Of a stretch of DNA of 64,000 bases, positions 2,569 to 36,005 are shown in pieces. The notes beneath the pieces were generated by a model, which ran no database searches, was not told where the DNA came from, and saw nothing but the letters and a program-made list of their open reading frames with translations. The DNA is from Desulfobacteraceae bacterium. Its GTDB lineage: Bacteria; Desulfobacterota; Desulfobacteria; Desulfobacterales; UBA5852. The stretch covers positions 64,756 through 128,755 of the forward strand of contig JABZFP010000019.1 in NCBI GenBank assembly GCA_014237395.1. Direction: 5' to 3'. Position 1 is the first letter of the stretch. Each line of letters starts with the position of its first letter. The position numbers were made by a program, and so were the translations under genes.

Positions 2569-4308
2569 TCAACTCCTTTTCTTCCGGGGCCGCGCTTTCT
2601 TCCTGAACGCTTTGCCGGGGGCACGCCCGGGGAGTATTTCTTCTTTCTGGCGCAGTTTTTTCCGCCGGTCTTTTTCCACGAAGAGTGGCGTGCCATCAAA
2701 CGGATCCTGTTCCGTATGATACATCAGGGCGCCGTATGTGCAAGGCGTCGGGGTAAAAATCTGGATTTGTTCGGGAGCCGCCTGGAGCTTGGTGCGCGTG
2801 TAGTGGCGCAGCCGCTGCATGTCCTTCTGGGTGCATCCGGGATAGGCGGCCATCAGGTAATAGCTGAGGAACTGATTGAGGCCGGCGGCATGGGTGATCT
2901 GGTAAAACCGTTGCCGGAAAAGGGTGCAGGCCTCGATGGCGGGTTTGCCCATCCGGGCCAGAACATGGGGTTCGCTGTGTTCGGGGGCGATTTTGAGTTG
3001 GCCCGAAACATGATGGCGAATGAGATCTTCAAGGTAGGCGTCGCCCAACTTTTGATCGGCAAAAATCAGGTCCGGTCGCAGGCCGGAGGCCACGAAAATT
3101 TTACGGATGCCCGGAATACGGCGTATCTTCTGCATCAACCGGCGCAGGTGGCCGTGGTCCACCGGCAGGTGGGGGCATACCTTGGGATATAGGCAGCGTT
3201 TTTGGGGGCAGGCGCCTTTTTCCAACTTGCGGGCACACTCGTATCCATACATGTTGGCGGTTGGTCCCCCCAGGTCACTGATGATGCCCTTGAATTGCGG
3301 GTGGGCGGTCATCCGGCGCGCCTCCCGTATGAGGGAGGCTTCACTGCGGCCATAGACCCGGCGCCCCTGGTGAACGGCAATGGCACAGAAATGACACTCG
3401 CCATAACAGCCGCGGTGGGTCGTCAGGGCAAACCGAATGGTATCCAACGCGCGAACGCTTCCCTGCGTTTCATAAAAAGGGTGCTGGGCATGTGTGTAAG
3501 GCAACTCGTACACCGCATCCAGTTCCTCGGTGGTCGGTGGAAAAGCCGGTGGATTCTGCACCAGCCAGCGGGTGTCCTGCTGCTGACAAAGCCCGCTGGC
3601 GCTGACCGGATCGTTGTTGCGGTAGAACGCATGAAACATTTGGGTAAACGCCCGGGGATCGCTGGCGACGGTCGGGTGCGCGGGGAGCATCAGGTAGTCC
3701 GTAATAGGCTGGGGGGCAATGTAGCACAGGCCGCGCAGGGGGCGCCAATCGGTTTGTTCATCCAAAGCGGCCGCCAGGGCCAACACCGTCTGCTCGCCCA
3801 TGCCGTAGACCAGGATGTCGGCCCGGGCGTCGAACAGGATCGACCGCCGGATGCAGTTGGCCCAGAAATCATAGTGGGAGATGCGGCGCAGGCTGGCTTC
3901 GATACCGCCAAGCACGATGGGCGCGGTTGATTTGGCATGGCGTCGGATCAGGTTGGCATAGGCAATCACGGCCCGATCGGGTCGCCGGTTGTTCTCCCCA
4001 CCGGGCGTGTAGTCATCCTTCTGGCGCCGTTTGCCGAGAGCGGTGTAGTTGGCGACCATGGAATCCACGCTGCCGGCGGTAATGCCCCAGAAAAGGCGTG
4101 GCGAGCCCAGGCGAAGAATGTCGCTGTCGCTGCGGATATCGGGTTGGGCGATAATGCCCACGCGGTAGCCGGCCTTTGACAATACGCGGCCGATGACGGC
4201 GGCGCCGATATGGGGGCTGTCGATGTAGCTGTCGCCCGTGACCAGGATGATGTCGAGGCGCTGCCAGCCGCGTTCGCGGACTTCTGCCTGGGTTGTGGGG
4301 AGAAACAC
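2569..4308 (-). CDS. ygiQ: YgiQ/UPF0313 family radical SAM protein
   Basis: Radical-SAM CxxxCxxC motif in [13 protein letters not shown]. Family-typical N-terminus [32 protein letters not shown] and a Lys/Arg-rich C-terminal tail. The ORF-track ATG at 4398 would overlap the ileS start, so I prefer GTG 4308-4306 (product MFLPTT...), which has AGGAAA 7 nt upstream. Confidence 0.85.
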
Positions 4309-4328
4309 GGATAATTTCCTATCGCATC

Positions 4329-4357
4329 TTGACACGATTTCCAATACTCTGTATCTG
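4329..4357 (+). promoter_or_regulatory. Candidate sigma-70 promoter of ileS (TTGACA-N17-TATCTG)
   Basis: Perfect -35 TTGACA at 4329-4334, a 17-nt spacer, and TATCTG at 4352-4357, about 40 nt upstream of the ileS ATG. It sits in the 88-bp divergent ygiQ/ileS region. Confidence 0.4.
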
Positions 4358-22962: not shown

Positions 22963-23368
22963 CGTCGAATCCTTGCTGAAGTTCTGCCCAATGTCGGGCA
23001 ATGATATGTCATCGTGCCTTGTCGTCTTGCATCGTCGAGGTGATGCCGTTTCCCCTATCGAATGATGGATTGGTGGTATTGATGGGGGCCTTTTGACCTG
23101 CCTTTCCGGTTCACCATCTGCCATGTGAATTTAATGCATCGTCGCATAATAGCAATGAAAAATGGTGCGACGCACTGAAAATATGCTCAAGTCTCAAGCA
23201 ATTGTGCCCGAAATAGAGCTTTGCCATTTCGCTATCTCCAATGGTCGGTCCGAGGGCGATGGTCAACGAATGTTGAATTTTGAACCATCGACGTCGCTTG
23301 ACTAAGCCGCGAATTTGGGATGAAATAAAGTGCCACATTGCGTTGAAAAGGTTTTTAAGGAGTCCGAA

Positions 23369-25276
23369 ATGGATATCAATGTTTGCTGCTCCCAAAAAGT
23401 GGTCTCGGCCGAGGCGGCCATTGCACGGATCAAGCGGGGTAGCCGTGTTTTTATTGGTACCGGATGCGGTGAGCCCCAGCATCTGATCCGGGCCATGGTT
23501 AAAAATGAACAGCTGCAGGATATCATGCTTTACCAGATGATGTCTTCCACCTTTGCGGATTACGTGGATGATCCGGCCTTTGTGAATCGATTCAATCTCA
23601 AGCTGTTTTTCATCAGCAAGGCCATGCGAAAAGCGGCTTTTGAGGGAAAAATAGACTACATTCCGGCCTACCTGTCGAAAATTCCACGACTATTTTCCAG
23701 TCATCGCATTGGTTTGGATGTGGCCTTGGTGCAGGTCAGTCCACCGGATCACTTTGGGTATTGCAGCTTAGGGGTATCGGTCGATATCACGCGCTCGGCC
23801 ATGGAACATGCCCAACTGGTCATTGCCCAGGTCAATTCTTCAATGCCCCGAACGTGGGGTGACAGTTTTGTGCATGTGGACGAAATCGATTACTTGGTTC
23901 CGCAAGATGAAGCCCTTGTCGAAACCATGACCTATCTCGAAGACAATCAAATCTCAATGCGAATCGGGCATTTCGTTGCGCAACTGGTGGAGGACGGGGC
24001 GACGTTGCAAATTGGTTTCGGGTATTTGCCCAATGCCATATTGCGCTACCTGGACCAGAAACACGATCTTGGCATTCATACCCAGCTTATCACGGATGGT
24101 TTGTTGCCGTTGTTTGAAAAGGGCGTCATCACCAACAAAAAGAAAACCCTGCTTCCCGGTCGGGTCGTCGCATCCTTGTGTATGGGGACCGAAAGGCTAT
24201 ATCGTTTCGTCGACAATAATCCGGCTTTCTATTTCCGATCATCAGAATTTGTAAACGATCCTACCGTCATCGCCCGTAACGACAATCTTATTTCAATCAG
24301 TAGCGCCCTCGAAGTTGATCTGACGGGGCAGGTTTGCTCGGATTCAATGGGACAGTTGTTTTACAGCGGCATCGGGGACCAGGTAGATTTTCTGCGGGGG
24401 AGTGCCATGTCGAAGGGCGGGTTTTCGATTATTGCCATGCCATCAACCGCGTGTAACGGGAATGTTTCCCGGATCGTTCCTTATCTCAGCGAGGGCGCAG
24501 GGGTGGCGACCACGCGCGCGGATGTGAATTTTGTGGTGACGGAATACGGGATTGCCGAACTGCAGGGAAAGAGCATATTTCAACGCGTGATGGAGTTGAC
24601 GCAGATCGCTCACCCGAAATTTCGGGACCAGCTAATCCAGACCGCAAAAAACCGACATTACATTTTTTCGGATCAACTGCCGCCGGCACAAGAAGATCTC
24701 CTGTTTCTCGAAGGATATAAAACAACATTGGAGCTTAAAAGCGGTAAAACACTGCATTTTAGACCGTTGTTGCCGTCGGATGAATTCGCCTATCGAAATT
24801 TTTTTTACTCGCTCCAAGAGGATACCATTTATTATCGGTTTTTCTATCAGATGAAGTTGTTTTCACACGAGGTTATCCAGAAACAATGGGCCAGCGTCGA
24901 CTATCGCAAAAACATGTCCATGATCGGGCTGGTTCAGAAAGCAGGACATCAGGAAATTGTCGCCATCGGGACGTACGCCCAAGAAGACGATACCAACGCC
25001 GAAGTGGCGTTCGTGGTCCGTGAGGATTTTCAGGGAATGGGAATTGCATCCTATCTTCTTGAAATCCTGGAAGGAATTGCCAGGGAGAATGATTATCGGC
25101 GATTTACGGCCACTGTATTGAAAGACAATCAAGCCATGTTGAATGTTTTTCGTAAACATTACCCAAATGCGCATATGACCATTACCGGCGGGAGCGAAGT
25201 GTCCGTTGTAATGGAATTCGATCCTGATAGGCCCCATGCGACCAACATGTCCACCGAGCCCCCTGCCAGGGAATAA
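23369..25276 (+). CDS. Acetyl-CoA hydrolase/transferase family protein fused to a C-terminal GNAT acetyltransferase domain
   Basis: AAGGAG RBS. The N-terminus (SAEAAIARIKRGSRVFIGTGCGEPQHL) and the middle block (GIGDQVDFLRGS) are typical of acetyl-CoA hydrolase/CoA-transferases. The C-terminal about 170 aa carry the GNAT motif VVREDFQGMGIASYLLE. Confidence 0.85.
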   Translation: MDINVCCSQKVVSAEAAIARIKRGSRVFIGTGCGEPQHLIRAMVKNEQLQDIMLYQMMSSTFADYVDDPAFVNRFNLKLFFISKAMRKAAFEGKIDYIPAYLSKIPRLFSSHRIGLDVALVQVSPPDHFGYCSLGVSVDITRSAMEHAQLVIAQVNSSMPRTWGDSFVHVDEIDYLVPQDEALVETMTYLEDNQISMRIGHFVAQLVEDGATLQIGFGYLPNAILRYLDQKHDLGIHTQLITDGLLPLFEKGVITNKKKTLLPGRVVASLCMGTERLYRFVDNNPAFYFRSSEFVNDPTVIARNDNLISISSALEVDLTGQVCSDSMGQLFYSGIGDQVDFLRGSAMSKGGFSIIAMPSTACNGNVSRIVPYLSEGAGVATTRADVNFVVTEYGIAELQGKSIFQRVMELTQIAHPKFRDQLIQTAKNRHYIFSDQLPPAQEDLLFLEGYKTTLELKSGKTLHFRPLLPSDEFAYRNFFYSLQEDTIYYRFFYQMKLFSHEVIQKQWASVDYRKNMSMIGLVQKAGHQEIVAIGTYAQEDDTNAEVAFVVREDFQGMGIASYLLEILEGIARENDYRRFTATVLKDNQAMLNVFRKHYPNAHMTITGGSEVSVVMEFDPDRPHATNMSTEPPARE

Positions 25277-25644
25277 AGAATGGACCGATTGGTATGAAGC
25301 AGATTGCCCCTGTGTTTTCAGGGATATCCAGCAGAGGGTTTTGAGTTTTTCCTTGATAAAACAGTATTTTTTCTGCTATTTATGAAAAGTTATCATTCAT
25401 CGGGGCGTTTGTGGCGGCATAAAAATCGGGCAACGATGCGCTTGCGACATTACCGTATAAACCCTCAGTGGCGGCATTCACCTAAACGGGCTTGGGGCTG
25501 GGATGACCCATGGGGTGATGGAATTTACGATGATAAGCTTCCATCAGCTTAATATGATTATAAAATATTGCCGATAGACGATCATTTGACATGATGTAAA
25601 GACGGTATGCGCTCGACCTAAATATATTCAGGGAGGTATTTCAA

Positions 25645-26049
25645 TTGTCTTATACGCTTGGCCAGAAACAGCTTGATAGTATTGATGAAATTCTTCAGAC
25701 CGATCTGGTCGACATTGGCGTCCATTGCGTTTTCCTCATCGATATGTCGGGCAATATCATTGCCAGTCTTGATGATGGAGAGAATAAACACGATATTTAT
25801 TCCCTGGCGGCACTGGCAGCCGGTAATTTCGGGGCGGTAAGCGCAATGGCCAAAATCGTGGGGGAAGGTGAGTTTTCCCTGCTGTTTCATAAAGGGAAAA
25901 AAGAGAATATTCATTTCAGCAAGGTTCTCACGGAATTTTTGCTGATCACGCTTTTTGGCAACGATCTTTCATTGGGCTTCCTTCGATTGAAAGTTGCTGA
26001 ATCCGTAGAAAAAATCAAAAAAATATTGGAACCTATCCACACCCCATAA
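25645..26049 (+). CDS. mglB: MglB (Roadblock/LC7 family GTPase-activating protein)
   Basis: TTG start with a GGGAGG RBS. CVFLIDMSGNIIASL...SLAALAAGNFGAVSAMAKIVGEGEF..LLFHKGKKENIHF...LSLGFLRLKV aligns block for block with Myxococcus MglB as I remember it (VVFLVDKNGQLISS...SLASLTAGNVAAMGGLAKLIGENEF..QFHEG...TSLGLVRLRI). Confidence 0.9.
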   Translation: MSYTLGQKQLDSIDEILQTDLVDIGVHCVFLIDMSGNIIASLDDGENKHDIYSLAALAAGNFGAVSAMAKIVGEGEFSLLFHKGKKENIHFSKVLTEFLLITLFGNDLSLGFLRLKVAESVEKIKKILEPIHTP

Positions 26050-26109
26050 TCGCCAGCTGGCCACGGGTGTTTTAATGATCATCGACTGAAGACGATAGGT
26101 GATATTTCA

Positions 26110-26715
26110 ATGGCATTTGTAAATTTGAAAAAGAAGGAAGTCCAAGTAAAAATCGTCTACTATGGACCGGGCCGTGGCGGTAAGACCACCAACCTCGAAT
26201 ATATCTACAACAAGTTCAACGAGCGCATTCAAACTGAGATGGTCACCGTTAAAACGCACGGGGATCGGACGTTGTTTTTTGACTTTCTCCCCATCGATAT
26301 CGGGAAAATCAATGGATATACAGCCAAGATGCAATTGTACACCGTACCTGGACAGGTAAAATACAATGCAACGCGCCGTCTCGTTCTGAGAGGTGCGGAT
26401 GGCATTGTATTTGTGGCGGACTCGATGGCGGTCCGAAGAGAAAAAAATATCCTTTCATTAAAAAATTTACATGAAAATCTTAAGAACTATAAAAAAAGCA
26501 TCTTTGCCATCCCGCTGGTATTTCAATACAACAAAGTCGATCTCACGGAGCAGGGAATTCCCCTGCTACCCTTTGCAACGATGGAGAAGGACCTCAACAG
26601 CCAACTGAAACGTCCGGCCTTTGAGGCCAGTGCCGTGACCGGTACAAACGTGGTTTCGACCCTCAAAAAAATTATCACCATGACCATGGCCTCTATCAAG
26701 GATGAATTAAAATAG
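26110..26715 (+). CDS. mglA: MglA family Ras-like small GTPase
   Basis: KIVYYGPGRGGKTTNLEYIY (P-loop, nt 26164-26187), switch I DRTLFFDFLP, MglA-specific switch II LYTVPGQV, GADGIVFVADS, G4 QYNKVDL. Near-colinear with M. xanthus MglA from memory. Immediately downstream of mglB, as in Myxococcus. Confidence 0.93.
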   Translation: MAFVNLKKKEVQVKIVYYGPGRGGKTTNLEYIYNKFNERIQTEMVTVKTHGDRTLFFDFLPIDIGKINGYTAKMQLYTVPGQVKYNATRRLVLRGADGIVFVADSMAVRREKNILSLKNLHENLKNYKKSIFAIPLVFQYNKVDLTEQGIPLLPFATMEKDLNSQLKRPAFEASAVTGTNVVSTLKKIITMTMASIKDELK

Positions 26716-26718
26716 GAG

Positions 26719-27423
26719 ATGTCTGTGAACAACGACGCCAAAAAAAGCAAAGTTGACAGCGATCTGGAAAACCGACTCGACACGCTTTTTGATGATGACG
26801 ATCAGGCGGAAAAACCCCTTGTTAGTCATGGTCCCTCAGAAGATCCATTGGATGAATTAAAGTCATTGGTGATGTCCATCGAGTGGGAAATTACGGACGA
26901 CGTGATGGCGCGTTTTATCTCTCAGATCGATTTACTCAAAACACGCTTTGAGGAAGATCGAATTTTAGTCATGTTTCTTCAATTGCTGGGCTCTTTGGGA
27001 CTTTACGTAAAAACAAATAAAGGCAAAGCACATCCTATCTCGTTCAAGCTCCTTAACTCCGTCTATAATAGCTTTGAAACTGCCGTGTCACCGGGGAAAA
27101 TTTCACCTTCCGAAAAGAAAAAATTGTTGTATGTCGAGTTGAACAAATACAAAGAGTTAAAAGAGCAAATTGATGCTACCCGTGGTGGCGAAACCGAACC
27201 ACCGCATGGTCCTGCCGCGCCAGTTGGGTTGGCAACCGGCCAGGAAAAAAAGGATCGTGCCTCACGCGAAGCTGCTGCAACGGGCAATCCTTCATCGGCC
27301 AGCGCTATCGTGACCCAGAAACATTTCGATGAGGTCATGGACGCCTTTAAGTCTCTGCTCAGGAAGGAACTCAATAGCATCCGTGAAGACATAGCGCGTC
27401 TGGCAAAAAAAAATAGGACATGA
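26719..27423 (+). CDS. Hypothetical protein (acidic N-terminus, helical core, coiled C-terminus)
   Basis: 234-aa ORF starting 3 nt after mglA. No family recognised. The start could instead be GTG 26725, which has better spacing to the AGGAG at 26714-26718. Confidence 0.7.
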   Translation: MSVNNDAKKSKVDSDLENRLDTLFDDDDQAEKPLVSHGPSEDPLDELKSLVMSIEWEITDDVMARFISQIDLLKTRFEEDRILVMFLQLLGSLGLYVKTNKGKAHPISFKLLNSVYNSFETAVSPGKISPSEKKKLLYVELNKYKELKEQIDATRGGETEPPHGPAAPVGLATGQEKKDRASREAAATGNPSSASAIVTQKHFDEVMDAFKSLLRKELNSIREDIARLAKKNRT

Positions 27424-27524
27424 ATGTTCCGAGCGGTTTAGGGAGAGCCCGTGGTAAGCGGGTGCTTGCGCCATTGGCCGACGATCGCATACGAATTCGG
27501 TAAAAAATTTGGGGGAGGTAAGCG

Positions 27525-27995
27525 ATGGATTTGTCGTCCGGTGATATTTCGGAACTCGTCTTCAAACCCGTTGTACGTGACGATCTGGGTAACTTTTCTC
27601 TTGACGGCCATATGTTAAGCGTTCTCATGGCATTGGATGGGAAAAGCACGATCGGGAAGGTTGCCCAACAATCGGGTCTGAACATGGCGACCATGCGGGA
27701 TGCCACAAAAAAACTGGTTGAATTGAAGCTAATCGAAAGAATTGAAGGTTCCGGAAGTGTCCTGGACCATGATTTTATATCATTTCTGATTTCTGAATTA
27801 TCACTTGCCATCGGTCCTTTAGGCGAGGTGATTGTAGAGGATGGCGTTGAAGACCTCGGTTTCACAAAAGCCAATTTTCCCACGCATCGTGCTGCGGAAC
27901 TGGTCAATTTACTTGCGCAAGAAATTCAGAGAGATGAAAAGCGCACTGAATTTAAGCAGCGCATGGTGAAGAAAATACGAGAGAAAAGATACTGA
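27525..27995 (+). CDS. Hypothetical protein with N-terminal winged-helix-like segment
   Basis: GGAGG RBS. LSVLMALDGKSTIGKVAQQSGLNMATMRDATKKLVELKLIERIEG looks like a wHTH (MarR-like or DUF742/CvnC-like). The C-terminal half is unassigned. Confidence 0.7.
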   Translation: MDLSSGDISELVFKPVVRDDLGNFSLDGHMLSVLMALDGKSTIGKVAQQSGLNMATMRDATKKLVELKLIERIEGSGSVLDHDFISFLISELSLAIGPLGEVIVEDGVEDLGFTKANFPTHRAAELVNLLAQEIQRDEKRTEFKQRMVKKIREKRY

Positions 27996-28134
27996 GTCGA
28001 TCAACGAGGAAACGCAAAGCATTAGGCTGATTTTATCCGTTCGACCATGTTTCTGAGATGAATGGTTTGAGCGTAATTACCGGCTATTGAGATATGCTAG
28101 CAAACTGGCGATATCGCAGACAAGGAGTGCGGCT

Positions 28135-29490
28135 ATGATCGTTATTTGTGAAGAATGTGGCAAAAAATACAAAATCGACCCCGGGAAAATCAAGGGGGAA
28201 CAAGCCCGCTTTAAATGCAAAGCCTGTTCTCACATCATCACCGTGAATAAGGTTGAAAACAGGCGCGAACCGGAACCGACTGTGGAACCCGAGACCATGG
28301 ATTCTGCTGTTGCTGATTCCACCGAGGTGCCGGAAGAAACCATCGATAAATCCGAGCCGCCTTCCCAGGTCGTTGAACCATCAGCCCCTCCTGTGGCCGA
28401 CCGCATTGATCGTCGTAAAAAGAAAGCGGGCATGGGGCTGACCACCAAGGTGATTCTTCTTATGCTGCTTGTTAGTCTGCTGCCGGGAACGATTTATTTT
28501 ATTCTTTCGTTTAAGCAGGCCAATGACCGTATCGTCAGTGATACAACTCAGATGGGCATGCAAACCGCCGGGGTGCTCGCCGATGAAGTCGATGAGTGGC
28601 TTGATAAAAACATCCGTGTCCTTAACACCGTGGCGCAAATGCCGGGTATTCAATCAATGAATCGTTTTGAACAGGAAATTCTTTTGCAAACGGTTCAGAA
28701 AGAATATCCTTGGATGTATCTTGTTTTTACGACGGATATCAATGGGATGAATGTGGCCCGAAATGATGGGAAAGAATTAAAAGATTACTCGGATCGCCAA
28801 TACGTCCAGGATATTACTTCAGGAAAAGACCTCACCTGGCAAAATTTGATTGGTAAAACATCGAAACAACCCGCGTTGGTTATTGCGGTGCCTATCCGGA
28901 AAAACAATCAGACCATCGGGGTGATGGCCGCGGCCATGACACGTGATGCGATCAGCCAGCGAATTGCAAATTGGCGCCAGGGAAAAACAGGATACGCATT
29001 TCTGGTCGATCAATACGGGAAGGTTGTGTCCCATCAATTGAAAGAGTTCGTTGAGGAACAAAAGGATCTAAGCAATCATCCGCTGGTCAAGGCCGCTAAT
29101 GCCAATAAGAATAGCATGATTGAATTTAAAAATGACAATGGGCGTGATGAGATCGGTTTCTCCAAAACAACCCAACTGGGATGGGCGCTTGCGATCCAAC
29201 AGGAAAAAAATGAAGCATTTGCCATTCTCAAAGAATCGCAAATGTTCGCTTTCGCTTTGATGGGCGCAACTTTTATCGTTGTCCTTATCATTGCCTATAT
29301 CGCAAGCCGCGCAATTGTTACACCAATACGCAAATTGACGGATGCGGCCAACCGCATCAGCGTCGGCGAACTCGGTGTTGAAATTGAAAACAAGTCCAAG
29401 GATGAAATCGGCGACCTCGCAGAGGCCATTACGAGAATGCAAGACAGCATAAGGTTGTCCATTGAAAGGCTTAGACGTCGGCGAAGATAG
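28135..29490 (+). CDS. Membrane sensor: MJ0042-type zinc ribbon + TM + Cache-like periplasmic domain + TM + HAMP, no output domain
   Basis: AAGGAG RBS with ATG 28135. Domains in order:
- Zn ribbon MIVICEECGKKYKIDPGKIKGEQARFKCKACSHIITV.
- P/E-rich linker.
- TM1 VILLMLLVSLLPGTIYFIL.
- About 230-aa extracytoplasmic region with a Cache-like pattern (YLVFTTDINGMNVARND...YSDRQYV...IAVPI...GYAFLVDQYGKVVSH).
- TM2 FAFALMGATFIVVLIIAYIA.
- HAMP IVTPIRKLTDAANRISVGELGVEIENKSKDEIGDLAEAITRMQDSI.
The stop follows 12 aa after HAMP. Confidence 0.85.
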   Translation: MIVICEECGKKYKIDPGKIKGEQARFKCKACSHIITVNKVENRREPEPTVEPETMDSAVADSTEVPEETIDKSEPPSQVVEPSAPPVADRIDRRKKKAGMGLTTKVILLMLLVSLLPGTIYFILSFKQANDRIVSDTTQMGMQTAGVLADEVDEWLDKNIRVLNTVAQMPGIQSMNRFEQEILLQTVQKEYPWMYLVFTTDINGMNVARNDGKELKDYSDRQYVQDITSGKDLTWQNLIGKTSKQPALVIAVPIRKNNQTIGVMAAAMTRDAISQRIANWRQGKTGYAFLVDQYGKVVSHQLKEFVEEQKDLSNHPLVKAANANKNSMIEFKNDNGRDEIGFSKTTQLGWALAIQQEKNEAFAILKESQMFAFALMGATFIVVLIIAYIASRAIVTPIRKLTDAANRISVGELGVEIENKSKDEIGDLAEAITRMQDSIRLSIERLRRRRR

Positions 29491-29597
29491 GACCGGCACC
29501 CTTCCGGAATTTTGGGCTTTCGGGCAGCCGTTGGGAAATATGCCGCCAACCTTTTTGATTACCGAAACTGTCATTTTGATGACTAGGAACGATTTGA

Positions 29598-30599
29598 ATG
29601 TTTGTTACACCTAAAGAAAATCCAATCTTTGCAAGTTTAAATAGCTATTATGTCAACATTGAACGGTTGATTGAACATTTTCAAGGTGAAGTTGGTTGCG
29701 GTGCTTTGTCTTTTAAATCTTCATCTTCGGAAGGGATATTATTTTTTGACAAAGATGAAATCCTCAATGGTATTTACTTTCAAAAAAATAATGAGTTAAC
29801 CGGATCTGAAGCGGTAGATCAACTCATTCAATTATCGGAATCCACCAATTTTTCATTGAATGTCTACCTTCTCCGGGCAGAAGATATTTACTTTTGGTCA
29901 ACGATGCCAAATGCTCAGCGCATCTATCAGGATCTTACCACGGAGTTTACCGATCTTGAAGGTTTGATCAAAAAAATGAAATCTGAAGGACTCACGGGGT
30001 TCATTGAAGTCGTCATCGGAGATGCCAATGGGGAAGGCCTGATCTTCTTCAACAATGGTCAAGTATCGGGAGGATCTTATTCTTGGGGTAGTGGTGACAG
30101 TCGGCGAGAAGAGGAAGATCAAGAAAAACTCGTTCAATTGACGAAAGACCATGGGGGCGCATTTCATGTCAGTCGCATCCCGATGGACGAAAAGAATATC
30201 GCCAGTGAAACAGATGACGATCTGAATCCAGAGGAAGTTTTAGAGAAGCCATCAACACGCATTGTTACGGCAATGGAAGAAATGATGGCTATTTTCGAAC
30301 GAACCGTTAGCGCACAAAAAAACATTCCGTCTGATTTTGCGACATTGTTAAATCGAAAATTTGTTGAGAAGGCTGACCGCTATCCCTTTTTGGATCCTTT
30401 TGCCGCTGAATTCAAATATGCCGAGGAAAAAATTAAGTTCGATGGCGATACGACGGATAAAGAACTGACACAGGGCGTTTTAGAGTCCATTAAGGAGCTT
30501 GCTGCTGAACTAGATGCGTTGACGCAATTCAAAAGCAACCTTGTGACCTGGATGAAAAAATATAGCGAAGAAGTTAAATTATTTGACATAAAGCTTTAA
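29598..30599 (+). CDS. Hypothetical protein with two PATAN/DUF4388-like segments
   Basis: Two internally similar segments: GCGALSFKSSSSEGILFFDKDEILNGIY...GSEAVDQL and LTGFIEVVIGDANGEGLIFFNNGQVSGGSY. Both resemble the TG.L.....G.I.F..G.I pattern of DUF4388. The assignment is from memory and tentative. Confidence 0.7.
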   Translation: MFVTPKENPIFASLNSYYVNIERLIEHFQGEVGCGALSFKSSSSEGILFFDKDEILNGIYFQKNNELTGSEAVDQLIQLSESTNFSLNVYLLRAEDIYFWSTMPNAQRIYQDLTTEFTDLEGLIKKMKSEGLTGFIEVVIGDANGEGLIFFNNGQVSGGSYSWGSGDSRREEEDQEKLVQLTKDHGGAFHVSRIPMDEKNIASETDDDLNPEEVLEKPSTRIVTAMEEMMAIFERTVSAQKNIPSDFATLLNRKFVEKADRYPFLDPFAAEFKYAEEKIKFDGDTTDKELTQGVLESIKELAAELDALTQFKSNLVTWMKKYSEEVKLFDIKL

Positions 30600-30795
30600 C
30601 GAATGCTGCTTGATTATGAATGTGGCTTATTGACCCCCCTAACCGTAATGAATTTATGTTGTCTCAATCGAATATCGCACGAACCTGTGCCGATAAATTT
30701 AGTCCGCGTGATGTAAGATTGAAAAGAGAGTCGTGGATAAATAACATTTCAAGACGCGGTTTAGCCGGAAAAGCAACATATGAGGCCTTGCGGTC

Positions 30796-31827
30796 ATGGA
30801 CAGTGCACATTTTTCAAGCATGGATGCTTCTTTACGCAGCTACTCAGAATTTGTAGGAAATTTACCGGTTGCTGTTTATCGCGTCACGGTTGAAGGTAAA
30901 ATCGCTTTTTGCAACGACCCCTTTGCACGAATTTTTGGTTTTGCATCAGTCAAAGATGCTATCGGTTTTCCGGAAATTAAACTTTATCGCAACAAAAAGG
31001 ATCGCGGCACATTAGTCCAAACCGTTTTGCAACATGGCCTTATTAGCGAAATGCCGGTTCCGTTCTATAAAAGGGACCGCACGCCCATATGGTGCTCGAT
31101 GACCACCAAGGCCGTATTTGATGATGACGGTGAAGTGGTATCTCTCGATGGACTTGTCCGAGATATTTCTGGCGAAATCGAAGAAGCCGATCTCAATGGC
31201 GACTTGATTGGTCGTCTCAATAGAATTGAAGACGCTGTTTTTCTGCTAGATCCACAGGGACGAATTATTCAGGCCAACGAAGTTGCTGCGGAAATTACCG
31301 GATGTCATATCGTCGACCTGCCGGGGCGCTTGTTTTCCGAATTGCTGGCTAACGAAGATCGACAGTTATTCTTTCTTTTCATTGGCGATACCAACCGAAT
31401 TGGTCGAGAAGAAATCATACTGAAATTAAAGGCTGATTCTTCGAAAGATAAATTTATTCGCATTCAAGCCGCCGTCATAAAATCTGAGGGGCGATCCCGG
31501 ACAATAAGTTGCGTTATTAGTGATGTGACGGATCGCGTCAACCAGATAAGGGAAAAAGCAAACAGGGATAAATTCCAAGGCGTACTTGAAATGGCAGGCG
31601 GTGTGGCCCATCGCTTTAACCAGCCATTGACCATTGTGACCAACATCATCAGTGAAATGCTATCCGATATCGATCCCGATGATCGACTCTACGCCAGTAT
31701 TTCCAAAGTACAGGATCAAATACACAAATTAAACGATATTGCCCGGAAAGTGGGCAATATCAAAAAATATGAAGCCATTGACTATGTCGCTGGTATAAAA
31801 ATTGTGGATATTGACCGAGCGTCATAG
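30796..31827 (+). CDS. PAS-PAS-DHp(HisKA-like) protein lacking an HATPase_c domain
   Basis: PAS1 is VAVYRVTVEGKIAFCNDPFARIFGF...IWCSMTTKAVFDDDGEVVSLDGLVRDIS. PAS2 is DAVFLLDPQGRIIQANEVAAEITG. The H-box is EMAGGVAHRFNQPLTIV. The protein then ends about 70 aa later (..KKYEAIDYVAGIKIVDIDRAS) with no N/G1/G2 boxes. Confidence 0.8.
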   Translation: MDSAHFSSMDASLRSYSEFVGNLPVAVYRVTVEGKIAFCNDPFARIFGFASVKDAIGFPEIKLYRNKKDRGTLVQTVLQHGLISEMPVPFYKRDRTPIWCSMTTKAVFDDDGEVVSLDGLVRDISGEIEEADLNGDLIGRLNRIEDAVFLLDPQGRIIQANEVAAEITGCHIVDLPGRLFSELLANEDRQLFFLFIGDTNRIGREEIILKLKADSSKDKFIRIQAAVIKSEGRSRTISCVISDVTDRVNQIREKANRDKFQGVLEMAGGVAHRFNQPLTIVTNIISEMLSDIDPDDRLYASISKVQDQIHKLNDIARKVGNIKKYEAIDYVAGIKIVDIDRAS

Positions 31828-31848
31828 GGCGGCTCAGAGGATTTATCA

Positions 31849-32877
31849 ATGATACGCAATGCTCTTTTTGTAGACGATGACCGCGAAATGCTTCAGGCTT
31901 TGAAAGAAGGCCTGGAAAAATATCGAGAGACCTTCAATGTCGTCCTGGCTGAGGATGGATTTGACGCTGTCAATAAACTCAAAAAGAATTCGATTTCTCT
32001 GGTGGTCACCGATCTCAAAATGCCGAACATGGATGGTTTCAGTTTGCTGGCCCATATCATGGAAACATATCCAGAGATCCCCGTCGTGATCATTACCGGC
32101 TATAGCACCTCCGAGATGAAACGGTTGGCCCAGGAAGGGGGCGCGGTTGGATATATAAGCAAGCCGTTCCTGATTGAAGACTTGGCCAAACACATCATGA
32201 AAACGTTGCGCAAAGAGTCGGACGGGGGAACATTGCACGGTGTTTCTTCCGGTATGTTTTTGCAGTTAATGGAAATGGAAGAAAGAACCTGCACGATTCG
32301 ATTGGTGGATAAGGCCAGCAAAAAAGGCGGTGTTCTTTTTTTCAGGGAAGGCGCCTTGTTGGACGCCCGTGTCGGTTCGATACAAGGGATTGAAGCCGCC
32401 TACATAATCTTTTCGTGGGAGGAGGTCACCCTCTCCATCCAGAACGAATGCCCACAGAAAGACAACAAGATCAATAGCGATCTTCAGCCGATTATTTTAG
32501 AAGCCATGCGGCTGAAGGATGAAGCGGATGACAATGAAGACGAAACAATCGAGGGCGACGAAGAAACGATTGAACAAATCACCTTGGATGAAAACCATGC
32601 ATCCCCGATTGAAAGAATCAAGTCGCGCCTGGATATCGAAATTGGAGAACGTTGCGGACTTGAGGATATATACCAAGACAACAGTATGAATGGTTTGGTC
32701 GAAACCCTCTCTGCGTTGGGTAGCGCCTTCAGCTTCGGTGCCATGAGACTTGGTTACATTGATCGAGGGGCGGCAACAGATACGATTTTATTGCCGGGTA
32801 ATCCATCGACCATCATAGCGGTGGACCCGAAATGTCCACGGGATAAAATTATCCAGGTATTGAGCGACACCATTTGA
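31849..32877 (+). CDS. Response regulator: receiver + PATAN/DUF4388 domain + acidic linker + unassigned C-terminal domain
   Basis: The receiver has all key residues: FVDDD, LVVTDLKMPNMDG, VVIITGYS, ISKPF. The DUF4388-like part is GTLHGVSSGMFLQLMEMEERTCTIRLVDKASKKGGVLFFREGALLDARVGSIQGIEAAYIIFSWEEVTL. It is followed by an acidic tract DEADDNEDETIEGDEETIE. Confidence 0.88.
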   Translation: MIRNALFVDDDREMLQALKEGLEKYRETFNVVLAEDGFDAVNKLKKNSISLVVTDLKMPNMDGFSLLAHIMETYPEIPVVIITGYSTSEMKRLAQEGGAVGYISKPFLIEDLAKHIMKTLRKESDGGTLHGVSSGMFLQLMEMEERTCTIRLVDKASKKGGVLFFREGALLDARVGSIQGIEAAYIIFSWEEVTLSIQNECPQKDNKINSDLQPIILEAMRLKDEADDNEDETIEGDEETIEQITLDENHASPIERIKSRLDIEIGERCGLEDIYQDNSMNGLVETLSALGSAFSFGAMRLGYIDRGAATDTILLPGNPSTIIAVDPKCPRDKIIQVLSDTI

Positions 32878-32934
32878 AATTGTTACGATCGTCATGATTG
32901 AATTGAAAAATAGATAGCTTCCGGTGCAAGGTGA

Positions 32935-33294
32935 ATGAAAAATATGAAAGACCTTTTCAATGATGTTATGGATATCAACGGCGTAAAAGGCATTGTATTG
33001 CTTTCAGGAGAAGGTAAAGTCGTTTATGATACGGATGCGAACAACAAGACCAATGCGGGAAAACCATATGCCAACTGGAATAAACTGCTTGTTTCATTAG
33101 GGGATGCGCGGGAGGCCGAATTTTTATTTGAAAAGGGTCGCCTCTATCTTCGAAAAACACATGACGGCTTTATGATCGTACGCATGCAGTTGATTGCATC
33201 CATTGCGATGGTCAAACTAAATTGTGATATTTTATTGCCACAACTTAAAAGTACAGGAAACAGCAAGGGTCTGAAGGGATTTTTTAAGCGCTAA
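32935..33294 (+). CDS. Second Roadblock/LC7-like protein (MglC-like candidate)
   Basis: AAGGTG RBS. 119 aa. INGVKGIVLLSGEGKVVYDT...EAEFLFEKGRLYLRKTHDGFMIVRMQLIASIAMVKL fits the Roadblock alpha-beta-alpha pattern. Much more diverged than the mglB product. Confidence 0.6.
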   Translation: MKNMKDLFNDVMDINGVKGIVLLSGEGKVVYDTDANNKTNAGKPYANWNKLLVSLGDAREAEFLFEKGRLYLRKTHDGFMIVRMQLIASIAMVKLNCDILLPQLKSTGNSKGLKGFFKR

Positions 33295-33432
33295 TCATGT
33301 TATGACGTTGTGTGTCCAGGAAAGTGATTTGGATGCGCGTCAGAACATGGCAATGGACGAGGTTCTAACCCAAATAAAATTATTAAATCCAGGCATTGCG
33401 TAAGCCTGATCCATCTGATTGAGAGTGAACTC

Positions 33433-35814
33433 ATGGCAAAACCGGAACAAACTGTGAAATCAGATCTTGATGCAAAAATAAACGAGGCAGAAGTTTGTCT
33501 TTCGATGGGCCTCTATGATGAAGCATTGTCGATATTTAATCAAGTGATCGATGAATATCCCGATATAGAAGAAGATAAAAAGAAGACCATAACGGAAAAA
33601 ATCGATAGTATCAAAAAAGAATTGGCGGATCAGGAGGTCAGCGAGGCGGGGAGTGTTTCTACTGAAGAAATATCAATGCTTAAAAAGTCACTCTCGGGAC
33701 AGGAAGATGCGCCGGCCATCATCGATAGTGCCTCGGCATTTAAAGATTTAGGGTTATTTGAAGAAGCACTGGCCGAATATGAAAAAATACTGGTATTGGA
33801 TCATCCCCCCGAAAGCGTTGTTCCGGATATTGTCGACTGTCTGCTCAAATTATTTTCTCCCAATGATTTGTTTGATAAAATACACAAAATTGTTGGCGAT
33901 CAACGCTTGGACACCGAAAAACGCGGCGCTTTAAAATTCCATTTCGGGCTAGAAATGGAAAAACGAGATTATCGGGATCTGGCACTTGACTTGTACGAAG
34001 AGGCGGAAAAAGAAACGCCGGATTACCCCGATTTGCAAAAACGCATTGAGACGCTTCGGTCACGACTGTCAAGCGGATCGAAGTATGACTATCTGTTGCG
34101 GCAGAAGCTAGTATCGACGGAACAGCTGCAGAAATCAGCCGCGATGTCGAAACAAACCAGGAAAAGCGTTGAAACCGTTCTCATTGAAAATTTTGGAATC
34201 AACAAAGAGGATATCGGGAAATCGTTTTCACAGTTTTATGGTTGTGCCTTCCGGTCATACGAAGAAGATCTCCAAACGCCATATGAATTGTTAGGCAATC
34301 TTAAAAAAGCCTTTCTTCTGCACGAACAATGGGTTCCCTTGAATTGGGGAAAAGATGGCGTCGTTGTTCTGGTTGCCGATCCCCGCGACCTGAACAAAAC
34401 CGATAACATCAAAGCCTTGATGAAGACCGGTAAAATTAATTTTTGTGTGGCCATTCGAGAAGATATCGAAGCCTATATCAAACGATTCTATGCAACAGAC
34501 CAGTATGGGGATATGTCCCAAGGCAGCGAGGGCCTCGATAATTTCGACGATATCCTTGACGTATCGTTTGAAGAAGAAGAAGATTTAGATGAAGCCATTG
34601 ATGAACTCGATGAAAGTTCCAGTAAGGTCGTAAAGTTAGTGGATCAGTGTCTCATTGCCGCTTATCGAAAAAATGCATCCGATATTCATATCGAACCTTC
34701 ACCGCAGACCAAATCCACCAATATTCGGTTCCGAATGGACGGCGTGTGCCAGGATTACATCAAGGTTCCCAACTCACTCGCTCGCGGCATCATTTCGCGC
34801 ATTAAAATCATGTCAAACCTGGACATTGCGGAACGCCGGTTGCCTCAAGATGGAAAAATCAAGTTCAAACGAAAGGGGATACCGCCCTTTGAACTTCGTG
34901 TGGCAACGTTGCCCACCGCCGGAGGTTTTGAAGACGCCGTGATGCGGATATTGGCTACCGCAGGCGCCATGAAGCTTGAAGATATGGGGTTGAACGACCG
35001 CAACTACAAAGTTTTAACCCAGGCCATCGACAAACCATACGGCTTGATCCTCTGTGTGGGACCCACTGGGTCCGGAAAAACAACAACCCTGCATGCCGCC
35101 CTCGGCCATATCAACAAGCCTGGCATCAAAATATGGACCGCGGAGGATCCGGTTGAAATCACCCAGTTGGGCTTGCGCCAAGTGGAAGCAAAACCCAAAA
35201 TCGGTCTTGATTTTGCACGGATAATGCGCGCTTTTTTGCGTGCTGATCCAGACGTCATCATGATCGGTGAGATGCGTGACGAAGAAACGGCATCCATCGG
35301 CGTGGAGGCATCGCTGACAGGCCACCTTGTATTTTCAACATTGCATACCAATAGTGCACCTGAAACCGTAACGCGTCTGCTGGACATGGGCCTAAACCCG
35401 CTGAACTTTTCAGATGCCTTTTTAGGTGTTCTTGCGCAACGACTTGTCAGGCGACTTTGCTCATGTAAAAAGGAATATCATCCCACGCAGGAGGAGTTTG
35501 ACCAGATTGTCGAAGATTACGGCTCTGAGTATTTTAAACATTCCGGCATCGAATATACCGCTGATTTAAAGATTGCACGTGCTGGCAGTTGCGAAAAATG
35601 TTCCGGAACGGGGTACAAGGGACGTATGGGGATCCACGAACTCATGAATGGCTCCAAAACCATTAAAAAATTGATCAAGCAGGCGGCGCCGACAGATCAA
35701 CTTTTTGCGCAGGCGATCGAGGAGGGGATGTCAACCTTGAAACAAGATGGTATTCACAAAATGTTCAAGGGCGTTACGGACATCGCGGAAGTTAAACGCG
35801 TTTGTATTGTGTAA
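33433..35814 (+). CDS. GspE/PilB-family secretion ATPase with N-terminal TPR-like region and T2SSE_N domain
   Basis: Domains in order:
- aa 1 to about 215: TPR-like helical repeats (GLYDEALSIFNQVIDEYPD, GLFEEALAEYEKILVLD, DLALDLYEEAEKETPDYPD).
- T2SSE_N-like region (LVSTEQLQKSAAMSKQTRKSVETVLIENFGI).
- Acidic linker.
- ATPase core with Walker A GPTGSGKTTT (about nt 35058-35087), Asp box DPDVIMIGEMRD, His box TGHLVFSTLHTN, and a CSC...CEKC tetracysteine. Confidence 0.92.
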   Translation: MAKPEQTVKSDLDAKINEAEVCLSMGLYDEALSIFNQVIDEYPDIEEDKKKTITEKIDSIKKELADQEVSEAGSVSTEEISMLKKSLSGQEDAPAIIDSASAFKDLGLFEEALAEYEKILVLDHPPESVVPDIVDCLLKLFSPNDLFDKIHKIVGDQRLDTEKRGALKFHFGLEMEKRDYRDLALDLYEEAEKETPDYPDLQKRIETLRSRLSSGSKYDYLLRQKLVSTEQLQKSAAMSKQTRKSVETVLIENFGINKEDIGKSFSQFYGCAFRSYEEDLQTPYELLGNLKKAFLLHEQWVPLNWGKDGVVVLVADPRDLNKTDNIKALMKTGKINFCVAIREDIEAYIKRFYATDQYGDMSQGSEGLDNFDDILDVSFEEEEDLDEAIDELDESSSKVVKLVDQCLIAAYRKNASDIHIEPSPQTKSTNIRFRMDGVCQDYIKVPNSLARGIISRIKIMSNLDIAERRLPQDGKIKFKRKGIPPFELRVATLPTAGGFEDAVMRILATAGAMKLEDMGLNDRNYKVLTQAIDKPYGLILCVGPTGSGKTTTLHAALGHINKPGIKIWTAEDPVEITQLGLRQVEAKPKIGLDFARIMRAFLRADPDVIMIGEMRDEETASIGVEASLTGHLVFSTLHTNSAPETVTRLLDMGLNPLNFSDAFLGVLAQRLVRRLCSCKKEYHPTQEEFDQIVEDYGSEYFKHSGIEYTADLKIARAGSCEKCSGTGYKGRMGIHELMNGSKTIKKLIKQAAPTDQLFAQAIEEGMSTLKQDGIHKMFKGVTDIAEVKRVCIV

Positions 35815-35843
35815 TCGATAGGAACGTCATAGCTGCTGAAACG

Positions 35844-35888
35844 GGCGAAGGTATTTTTCATCCTTGAAAAACCTTCGCCATTTTTATT
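35844..35888 (+). terminator. Strong intrinsic terminator closing the mglBA-to-ATPase gene block
   Basis: GGCGAAGG (35844-35851) pairs with CCTTCGCC (35872-35879). An inner TTTTTCA/TGAAAAA pairing extends the stem. Followed by ATTTTTATT. Confidence 0.8.
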
Positions 35889-36005
35889 GAAGCGTATCAC
35901 GGCAACGCGCATCACAATTTTTCCTCTTTGGAAAATACGAAAAGCAGAGATGCGGTCGCAACGGCGATCGCTGAATAAATCCAATCCAGGGCCTAAGCAA
36001 ACACG

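Follow-up and report, generated by a model that had tools for sequence, protein, structure and literature searches.

A two-PAS DHp sensor that lacks an ATPase domain and ends in a conserved hairpin tail is paired with a REC-PATAN regulator in a Desulfobacteraceae MglA/PATAN/PilB operon

Within the window analysed here, a 64-kb stretch (64,000 nt) of a Desulfobacteraceae contig, one gene of a ten-gene operon encodes a cytoplasmic two-PAS sensor whose output part is a CA-less dimer, folded as a DHp four-helix bundle with a beta-hairpin tail as its cap. We describe the architecture and conservation of this PAS-DHp protein, its membership of a large family, the absence of a kinase from its surroundings and the intact receiver of the REC-PATAN regulator encoded next to it. 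Judged from sequence, the sensor probably controls the phosphate on this regulator of a pilus-type motor ATPase, most likely by removing it. The specific reading that we prefer, with a probability of roughly 0.4, is that it would serve as a PAS-regulated phosphatase or phosphate sink for REC-PATAN, with docking, chemistry and downstream target all putative. The features are listed in Table 1; both frames carry the domains that an earlier note on this DNA had assigned to them (ORF list, Pfam).

Table 1. Positions of the operon, the two proteins and their parts in the window.
Feature	Position	Strand	Basis
Ten-gene operon	25645..35814	+	Pfam domains; synteny
PAS-PAS-DHp-tail protein, 343 aa, sensor without CA domain	30796..31827	+	ORF list, Pfam domains, orthologues
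PAS domain 1 (residues ~16-124)	30841..31167	+	Pfam PAS/PAS_9; AF2 PAS-like alpha/beta fold
PAS domain 2 (residues ~141-247)	31216..31536	+	Pfam PAS_4/PAS_8; AF2
DHp (HisKA-type) helical hairpin (residues ~245-321)	31528..31758	+	Pfam, profile, AF2, Foldseek
His272 codon	31609-31611	+	H-box AH272-R273-F-N275-Q276-P277-L
Family-defining C-terminal tail (residues 322-343), IKKYEAIDYVAGIKIVDIDRAS	31759..31824	+	Conservation; AF2 predicted beta-hairpin
REC-PATAN response regulator, 342 aa	31849..32877	+	Pfam; directly 3' of PAS-DHp gene
Receiver domain	31864..32196	+	Response_reg E 2.6e-26
Phospho-acceptor D55 codon	32011-32013	+	VVTDLKMP motif
PATAN (DUF4388/PatA_N, PF14332) domain	32227..32526	+	Pfam E 6.4e-12, 46 bits against a cut-off of 25
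C-terminal ~115 residues of the regulator	32527..32874	+	No family match

A Pfam scan of the PAS-DHp protein identified two PAS domains and a weak HisKA match at residues 265-316 (E 0.0086, below the gathering score), with no HATPase_c. The H-box, GGVAH272RFNQPLTIV, lies as close to the end of the protein as the earlier note had estimated (about 70 aa), with 71 residues from His272 to the C-terminus. AF2 modelled the DHp as two helices (residues 250-291 and 297-320, pLDDT 93) whose best Foldseek matches were kinase DHp domains, and the family profile aligned with the DHp of the solved kinases LvrB, ThkA, YF1/FixL and CckA over positions 2-76 only (E 6.6e-9). Beyond the second helix the protein continues for 22 residues, in which AF2 placed two strands (327-329 and 335-337, pLDDT at least 91); this model used a diverse 75-sequence alignment and gave the hairpin region a pLDDT of 93. 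A first AF2 run using 33 close orthologues had left the tail unstructured (pLDDT 31-44) because that alignment was shallow and invariant. No solved structure and no Pfam or NCBIfam model that we searched covers the tail, nor does the alignment of canonical kinases from the same genome extend over it. A degenerate ATPase domain hidden in the C-terminus is ruled out by the 22-residue length of the segment past the DHp, by the two helices and hairpin of the AF2 model, and by PDB and Pfam searches of the C-terminus that returned no match past the DHp. The suggestion that the last 70 aa form a novel domain needs correcting: some 50 of them are ordinary DHp helices, and the last ~20 make up a distinct conserved tail. 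We infer that the region past helix 2 is the positional counterpart of the DHp-CA linker and first CA strand of a kinase.

More than 120 orthologues were found, of about 343 aa (335-382 aa), none with HATPase_c. His272 is kept in all 120 of those compared and in 79/79 genomic orthologues, and N275 (+3), Q276 (+4) and P277 (+5) are likewise invariant across these 199, at overall identities down to 37%. The C-terminus is the best-conserved part of the protein, with a tail that is close to invariant among orthologues. These observations support a real, conserved protein in which the DHp occurs without a CA domain. A decayed or truncated kinase remnant is refuted by the hundreds of orthologues of the same length, by the conserved C-terminus and by the next gene, which starts 21 nt after the stop at an ATG preceded by a GAGGA ribosome-binding site. 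The truncated pseudogene that the earlier note had entertained is further countered by the wider family, in which the C-terminal module ends 0-28 residues before the C-terminus in 145 of 146 related proteins, and by the gene pair with REC-PATAN, present in 79 of 80 orthologous loci. The missing domain itself is the sole point in favour of a remnant.

The last 95 residues constitute a distinct module comprising a HisKA-type helical hairpin and a 20-residue tail, KYExxDYVAGxKIVDIDKAS, with the pattern (V/I)LEMAG-x-x-x-H-x-x-N-Q-P-L ... K-Y-E-x-x-D/E-Y-x-x-G-x-K-I-(I/V)-D-I-D/E-K-A-S at the very C-terminus. An HMM of this module scored the window protein at 130.5 bits and three paralogues at 115-120 bits; the canonical kinases of the genome, which are tail-less, all scored 44 bits or less. 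HisKA was matched in 71 of 76 members of the wider family. Joined to PAS, REC, HAMP, dCache, CHASE or 7TM inputs, the module forms the end of sensors from hundreds of families, most of them in Desulfobacterales, and none of these has an ATPase domain. The module family counts at least 320 clusters at 50% identity and more than 480 loci at species level. The tail is the hallmark of a very large CA-less sensor family and not of the window protein alone.

The "HisKA, no HATPase" class is already known, and it resembles the window protein in its N-terminal PAS, its C-terminal HisKA-like domain with conserved His and its lack of an ATPase. That class is defined by architecture and occurs mainly in Archaeoglobi and Methanomicrobia; its function has been guessed, with phosphatase or phospho-acceptor roles proposed by Galperin et al. 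(PMC5847659), and P2CS labels such proteins "possible incomplete histidine kinase" or "phosphotransfer protein" (PMC2716373). In contrast, the family described here is homologous, mainly Desulfobacterales and marked by a specific 20-residue beta-hairpin tail, and its window subfamily has no acid after the His and a fixed place in an MglA/PATAN/PilB operon. Literature searches on CA-less and DHp-only proteins returned remarks on the architecture class only, with no study or description of the tail-bearing family.

The operon encodes, in order, an MglB-like roadblock protein, an MglA-like GTPase, a 234-aa protein, a DUF8082-like protein of 156 aa, a Zn-ribbon-dCache-HAMP sensor without output, a 333-aa protein, the PAS-DHp protein, REC-PATAN, a 119-aa protein and a TPR-MshEN-PilB-type ATPase. 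This synteny is kept in loci L001, L002 and most of the 80, and the spacing of the PAS-DHp and REC-PATAN genes, measured between open frames across the 80 loci, is mostly -60 to +45 nt. Neither a sigma-54 promoter nor sigma-70 promoters or terminators were detected above chance in the block. By Pfam, the ten proteins hold a single receiver. Its catalytic residues (D9, D10, D55, T83 and K105), which the earlier note had found intact, are invariant in 80/80 receivers, even in the clade that has no kinase in the cluster, which indicates that phosphorylation is still used. The C-terminal part of the regulator had no Pfam match at E ≤0.01. Cyanobacterial regulators such as PatA, PixG/PixE and PilG/Rre6 also combine a receiver and PATAN in one protein; unlike these, the order here is REC-PATAN rather than PATAN-REC, and the input is a CA-less DHp sensor rather than a CheA-type kinase. 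Genes for MglB and MglA are known as neighbours of PATAN genes (PMC4316618), and binding of PATAN regulators to the motor ATPase PilB is reported (bioRxiv 10.1101/2021.06.11.447907).

The search for a kinase partner agreed with the earlier note, which had seen no HATPase_c in the block: Pfam gave no match in the ten proteins, and all 93 matches of a whole-genome scan lay outside the window, the nearest (C11:13924-14295) about 50 kb ahead of its start. The domain, with its N, G1, F and G2 boxes, was also absent from the PAS-DHp protein, 120 orthologues, 76 wider-family members and 81 genomic ORFs, and neither a kinase nor a hybrid kinase was found in the block or window. An orphan CA-only protein was not found among the HATPase_c matches of the genome. 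Two short frames (C30:200860-201333 and C28:481100-481591) were considered as CA-only partners and rejected, as they look like RsbW/SpoIIAB-type anti-sigma kinases; the remaining short HATPase_c proteins each have their own H-box. Operons of a sister clade contain a separate DHp+CA kinase of ~235-250 aa without a sensor domain, and the PAS-DHp protein lacks a CA domain in both clades; since that kinase is a separate gene, kinase and sensor have always been separate polypeptides, a point in favour of the phosphatase or sink reading. Orthologues of the sister-clade operon kinases were not found in this genome, where the best scores (100 bits for the small kinase and 390 bits for the hybrid kinase) were both to generic proteins. 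No donor of the D55 phosphate could be named from the HATPase_c scan and orthologue search of this genome.

These results bear on a split kinase, in which a CA domain on another polypeptide would phosphorylate His272 in trans, the small kinase doing so in the sister clade and some other kinase here. The sensor-less DHp+CA protein and the CA-less sensor do look like complementary halves, and the split CheA pairs CheA3/CheA4 and Hik36/Hik43 are precedents; pilus control is one setting in which such split kinases act (PMC7656254). We nevertheless regard this arrangement as quite improbable. The small kinase does not occur in the cluster of any of the 52 species of the window clade and is absent from the entire genome in 15 of 17 sampled cluster-bearing genomes, and this genome offers neither its orthologue nor a CA-only protein. 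Moreover, an H-box of its own (LRHELGNS) is present in the small kinase, whose DHp is dissimilar to that of the PAS-DHp protein; the latter also lacks the acidic residue required for ATP-dependent His phosphorylation. The small-kinase gene adjoins those for MglB and MglA, as in actinobacterial conservons, so its product may not target the receiver at all, which counts against the phosphatase or sink reading.

The chemistry expected of His272 depends on its neighbours. The residue at +1 is R273 here, R, S or Q in 120/120 orthologues, and R, S, K, H, N, T or Q, never D/E, in 79/79 genomic orthologues; in the wider family it is E in 90 of 96. The H-box is of FixL type (HELNQPL), with H-R-F-N-Q as the window motif. 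FixL/YF1-type HisKA kinases (4gcz, 3a0r ThkA, 8vc9 LvrB, 5idj CckA) have homologous DHp helices, the NQPL motif and an upstream PAS, but differ in having a CA domain and E where the window protein has R, and in lacking a free-standing conserved hairpin past helix 2. Of the features of a canonical HisKA kinase, the window protein thus has the DHp with its His, and neither HATPase_c nor the acidic +1 residue. Loss of that acid in the whole subfamily argues against ordinary kinase-type chemistry at His272, without excluding it. The H-R pair is also found in HWE/HisKA_2 kinases, and phospho-acceptance may therefore have survived the loss of the acid.

Without an ATP-binding domain or an acidic residue beside His272, the PAS-DHp protein cannot autophosphorylate. 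As H-box mutants that are kinase-minus and phosphatase-plus indicate, kinase activity requires the acid at +1, but phosphatase activity does not. The acid of HisKA kinases activates the His for autophosphorylation, the polar +4 together with the His does the phosphatase reaction, and HK853 retains phosphatase activity in vitro without its CA domain (PMC7005713). With EnvZ and HK853, DHp constructs that lack the CA domain dephosphorylate the regulator in vitro, so the DHp can suffice for this reaction, but these cases are laboratory truncations or mutants. HisKA phosphatases follow the motif H-(D/E)-x-x-(T/N), in which the literature showed the T/N at +4 to be necessary, whereas the natural, sensor-regulated version here would have an invariant Q, likewise polar (with N at +3). 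The strict and tight gene pairing (79/80 loci; 21 nt here) resembles that of a cognate kinase and regulator and counts in favour of a phosphatase or sink. Against it, a phosphatase with no nameable kinase in this genome makes an incomplete circuit. APC-corrected mutual information over 80 gene pairs gave scattered top pairs and no signal of DHp-REC covariation, an outcome of little information. Of the three options in the earlier note, a phosphatase or phosphotransfer module was the best fit, although the kinase encoded elsewhere that was to serve it found no support here; no positive evidence emerged for a kinase inhibitor or decoy.

Passage of phosphate in the opposite direction is also conceivable, with a kinase or receiver from another locus supplying His272, which would hand the phosphate to D55 under PAS control as a forward histidine phosphotransferase akin to Spo0B or ChpT. 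The invariance of His272 in 199 orthologues fits such a role, as does the phosphorelay-like context of wider-family REC-DHp-tail proteins, whose genes show translational coupling to those of HK-REC-REC hybrid kinases and lie beside those of single-domain receivers; P2CS, too, files HisKA-only proteins under phosphotransfer proteins. Spo0B (Bacillus) and ChpT (Caulobacter) are likewise DHp dimers with a His that never autophosphorylates and that act on receivers. They keep, however, the acidic residue after the His that kinases also keep and that the window subfamily has lost. They also have a full CA-like pseudo-domain, no sensor domains and a place between two receivers, none of which applies here: no CA-like pseudo-domain is present, SPOB_a, SPOB_ab and HPTransfase had no match in the PAS-DHp protein at E ≤0.1, and the operon, with one receiver and no kinase or hybrid kinase in block or window, provides no upstream D1. 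We consider a forward phosphotransferase unlikely.

Comparably unlikely is a non-catalytic sensor or scaffold, in which the DHp dimer and hairpin tail would bind REC-PATAN, a roadblock or PATAN protein, or the PilB-type ATPase in a signal-dependent manner and His272 would be structural. The most conserved, family-defining element is the tail, with its confident hairpin fold in AF2, and modules for protein-protein interaction (roadblock, PATAN, TPR) abound in the operon. Two cluster representatives of the subfamily, P0153 (His to Pro) and P0201 (His to Gln), retain the tail without the histidine and fit a non-catalytic role better. A purely structural role hardly explains the invariant His, N, Q and P of the H-box in 199 orthologues, however, and the receiver has fully kept its phospho-chemistry.

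Under the preferred phosphatase or sink reading, the DHp would dock on the receiver of the co-transcribed REC-PATAN much as a kinase DHp does with its cognate regulator, and the signal sensed by the PAS domains would lower REC-PATAN phosphorylation. This could proceed by a phosphatase route, with His272 and N275/Q276 positioning an attacking water, or by a sink route, with back-transfer of the phosphate from the regulator to His272. The phosphorylation state of REC-PATAN would then set the action of PATAN on the MglA/MglB switch and the PilB-type ATPase. The donor to D55 would lie outside the block, as another kinase or acetyl phosphate in the window clade, and would probably be the separate sensor-less kinase at the operon head in the sister clade. 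A comparable division of labour exists in the Caulobacter polarity circuit, where the kinase DivJ and the phosphatase PleC exert opposed activities on DivK from separate proteins; PleC, however, is a complete bifunctional kinase, CA domain included, and there is no homology beyond the DHp.

More broadly, and more doubtfully, the 95-residue module may be a distinct and widespread two-component output domain that acts directly on receivers, as a signal-regulated phosphatase or minimal histidine phosphotransferase, with the hairpin as a novel element for docking or for capping the dimer; the kinase and sensor roles in the MglA/PATAN/PilB operon would be permanently divided between two polypeptides, and the window clade would also have dropped the dedicated kinase. 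If this is true, genome censuses count such sensors as kinases or skip them, and a layer of phosphatase or relay wiring is missed. Operon types with and without a dedicated kinase would offer a natural experiment on a minimal phospho-switch and, if the sensor is the input, its action would account for signal input to a conserved MglA/MglB-PATAN-PilB operon found in sulfate reducers.

The sensor and regulator genes run in the same direction with a gap of 21 nt, and a GAGGA ribosome-binding site precedes the second start. By Pfam, the PAS-DHp protein contains two PAS domains and a weak HisKA match at residues 265-316 (E 0.0086, under the gathering score), and the REC-PATAN protein combines Response_reg (E 2.6e-26) with DUF4388/PatA_N (E 6.4e-12). 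The earlier note had described an H-box protein ending about 70 residues later without any HATPase_c (CA) domain in the ten-gene block, and the HMM scan that it proposed bears this out: the C-terminus lies 71 residues past His272 of the H-box (GGVAH272RFNQPLTIV), 0 of the 10 block proteins match HATPase_c, and none of the 93 matches from a whole-genome scan falls inside the window. The block (window 24001-36000) has a G+C content of 0.44-0.47 compared with 0.51-0.63 in both flanks. Directly upstream of the operon lies a gene for an acetyl-CoA hydrolase/transferase fused to a GNAT acetyltransferase, which holds the same position in a 64%-identity relative. The operon also encodes a second output-less sensor (Zn-ribbon, TM, dCache_1, TM, HAMP) that ends about ten residues past HAMP; its 382-aa relative at locus L002 consists of Zn-ribbon plus HAMP only, without the Cache part.

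Locations of the genes discussed (L, related loci; C, contigs of the window's own genome, G000; all others, window positions)
Feature	Location	Strand	Description
Acetyl-CoA hydrolase/transferase-GNAT gene	23330-25276	+	648 aa; relative at L001:2500-4371
Zn-ribbon-dCache_1-HAMP sensor gene	28087-29490	+	output-less
PAS-DHp gene	30796-31827	+	343 aa
REC-PATAN gene	31849-32877	+	342 aa
Module paralogue	C38:123623-124552	+	CA-less HisKA-plus-tail sensor
Module paralogue	C10:854451-855788	-	CA-less HisKA-plus-tail sensor
Module paralogue	C2:247954-248832	+	CA-less HisKA-plus-tail sensor; H-E H-box
Small kinase	L122:1452-2156, L118:375-1079, L145:191-904, 11 further loci		start of sister-clade operons
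Hybrid kinase	L133:8391-11810, L157:8409-11606, five further loci		between genes 9 (119-aa) and 10 (PilB-type ATPase)

The kinase-less PAS-DHp protein is real and conserved. Searching 5.8 billion proteins recovered over 120 orthologues with identities as low as 45%; almost all measure 335-360 aa and none is annotated with HATPase_c. The best-conserved stretch in an alignment of 33 orthologues was the C-terminal part, with GVLEMAGGVAH(R/S)xNQPLT and KKYEAxDYVAG(I/V)KIVDI(D/E)KAS. Eighty orthologous loci were compared, each from a species-level genome that belongs to Desulfobacterales or Desulfatiglandales or is an unclassified 'Deltaproteobacteria' MAG; across them the ten-gene order was largely preserved and the REC-PATAN gene came next in 79, at a spacing of mostly -60 to +45 nt from open frame to open frame. 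The orthologue-length survey suggested earlier as a check on truncation thus speaks against it, and the same lengths, conserved C-terminus and 79/80 gene pairing together rule out a truncated pseudogene with near certainty. In one protein, P0155, the DHp tail runs on into the REC-PATAN protein, a possible fusion whose end looks frameshifted.

The last 95 residues (DHp plus a tail of about 20 residues) define a module that, by phmmer against 1.84 billion cluster representatives, gave 1739 matches at E <=1e-3 and 320 at E <=1e-10, ending 0-28 residues from the C-terminus in 145 of the 146 top proteins (90-764 aa). HisKA was found in 71 of 76 members of this wider family, PAS in 51, REC in 22 and HAMP, dCache or CHASE in some; HATPase_c was found in 0 of the 76. 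A genome scan located more than 480 module loci, most in Desulfobacterales and a minority in Nitrospirae, Syntrophales, Calditrichaceae, Raymondbacteria, Eisenbacteria and one Methanotrichaceae archaeon, with no CA domain in 81 module ORFs. Four proteins of the window's genome score 115-130 bits on the module HMM, aligned through the tail and ending there; canonical kinases of this genome all score <=44 bits, align to model positions ~3-76 only and extend at least 150 residues further. The three paralogues have TM-PAS, HisKA_7TM-PAS and unknown-sensor inputs, and a receiver gene adjoins none of them.

The tail came out unstructured when AF2 was given a shallow alignment of close orthologues; given 75 diverse modules, AF2 reached pLDDT 93 and modelled two helices (250-291, 297-320), two strands (327-329, 335-337) and, at the end, a short helix. 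The predicted module is therefore a DHp hairpin plus beta-hairpin. Its best Foldseek matches are kinase DHp domains, and the family profile matches the solved kinases LvrB, ThkA, YF1/FixL, CckA and ZraS over profile positions 2-76 only. No solved structure, Pfam or NCBIfam model covers the tail, which, from comparison with kinases of the window's own genome, we infer to correspond positionally to their DHp-CA linker and first CA strand.

Of 44 orthologous loci that could be judged, 12 have a small kinase (DHp+CA, ~235-250 aa, without sensor domain; H-box LRHELGNS, N box DNA, G1 DNGxGI, PLFTTK/GMGL) immediately before the mglB-like gene, two further kinase-bearing loci being cut off. Seven loci carry a ~1100-aa hybrid kinase, REC-GAF-PAS-PAS-HisKA-HATPase_c-REC. 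In a midpoint-rooted maximum-likelihood tree of 77 PAS-DHp orthologues, a clade of 52 species including the window (support 97/89) has no in-cluster kinase; the remaining lineages are basal under this rooting and have one in nearly every case where the contig is long enough to show it. Because of this tree and distribution, the sensor appears never to have had its own CA domain, and the kinase, where present a separate sensor-less protein, was probably lost in the window's clade under midpoint rooting. The kinase-roadblock-GTPase-unknown order of the sister-clade operons recalls the actinobacterial conservon (CvnA-D), and since the small kinase adjoins the MglB and MglA genes as there, its target may not be the receiver. 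A full-length PAS-DHp orthologue is present in 17 of 151 genomes of the order, only 2 of which also have the small kinase. The window's genome contains no orthologue of either kinase and no CA-only protein other than two RsbW-like anti-sigma kinases, so the proposed search for an orphan partner yielded none; a split kinase with its CA domain supplied in trans is improbable. The earlier suggestion of a kinase encoded elsewhere gained no support from these searches. The intact receiver read earlier from the sequence does stand: D9, D10, D55, T83 and K105 are invariant in 80 of 80 REC-PATAN sequences, and phosphorylation is evidently still used.

The wider-family H-box is of FixL type (H-E-L-N-Q-P-L; E in 90/96). 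An acidic neighbour activates His for autophosphorylation, a polar +4 residue acts with His in the phosphatase reaction, and HK853 remains a phosphatase for its regulator when the CA domain is removed (PMC7005713). In the operon's subfamily the His (120/120 and 79/79) and N-Q-P are kept, and the acidic residue is always swapped for R, S, K, H, N, T or Q. Given these residue roles, the subfamily looks 'kinase-minus, phosphatase-possible', with the caveats that +4 is Q, not T/N, and that the H-R pair also occurs in HWE/HisKA_2 kinases. The best-supported reading, to which we give a probability of roughly 0.4, is that a PAS-regulated DHp dimer would dock the co-expressed receiver and reduce its phosphorylation, by phosphatase activity or through back-transfer onto His272. 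Forward phosphotransfer to the receiver is unlikely: it would suit the relay-like contexts of REC-DHp-tail relatives beside HK-REC-REC hybrids, but the subfamily has lost the acidic residue and the operon has just one receiver. At L014, L039, L041, L080 and L040 (~3550-4330 each), the genes for such relatives (~230-260 aa) begin before the stop codon of a large kinase-REC-REC hybrid gene and overlap it, and at L036, L044, L060, L077 and L079 others adjoin single-domain receiver genes; these contexts look like phosphorelay, in which histidine transfer could fall to a CA-less DHp. Equally doubtful is a non-catalytic scaffold working through the tail; two representatives of the subfamily, P0153 and P0201 (PAS-PAS-DHp-tail), have Pro or Gln for the His and keep the tail. 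DHp/REC covariation did not discriminate between these mechanisms.

A 'HisKA, no HATPase' class has been noted in archaea (Galperin et al. 2018, PMC5847659) and in P2CS (PMC2716373), with functions only speculated upon. Cyanobacterial PATAN regulators bind PilB (bioRxiv 10.1101/2021.06.11.447907), and genes for MglA and MglB are already known to occur next to PATAN genes (PMC4316618). Our literature search found no description of the tail-bearing family or its fixed C-terminal position, of the acid-less subfamily, or of the operon types with and without kinase. The 'HisKA, no HATPase' class is known by architecture but unstudied, and the tail-bearing family appears new; its interest is raised by a widespread module whose function is directly testable in vitro.
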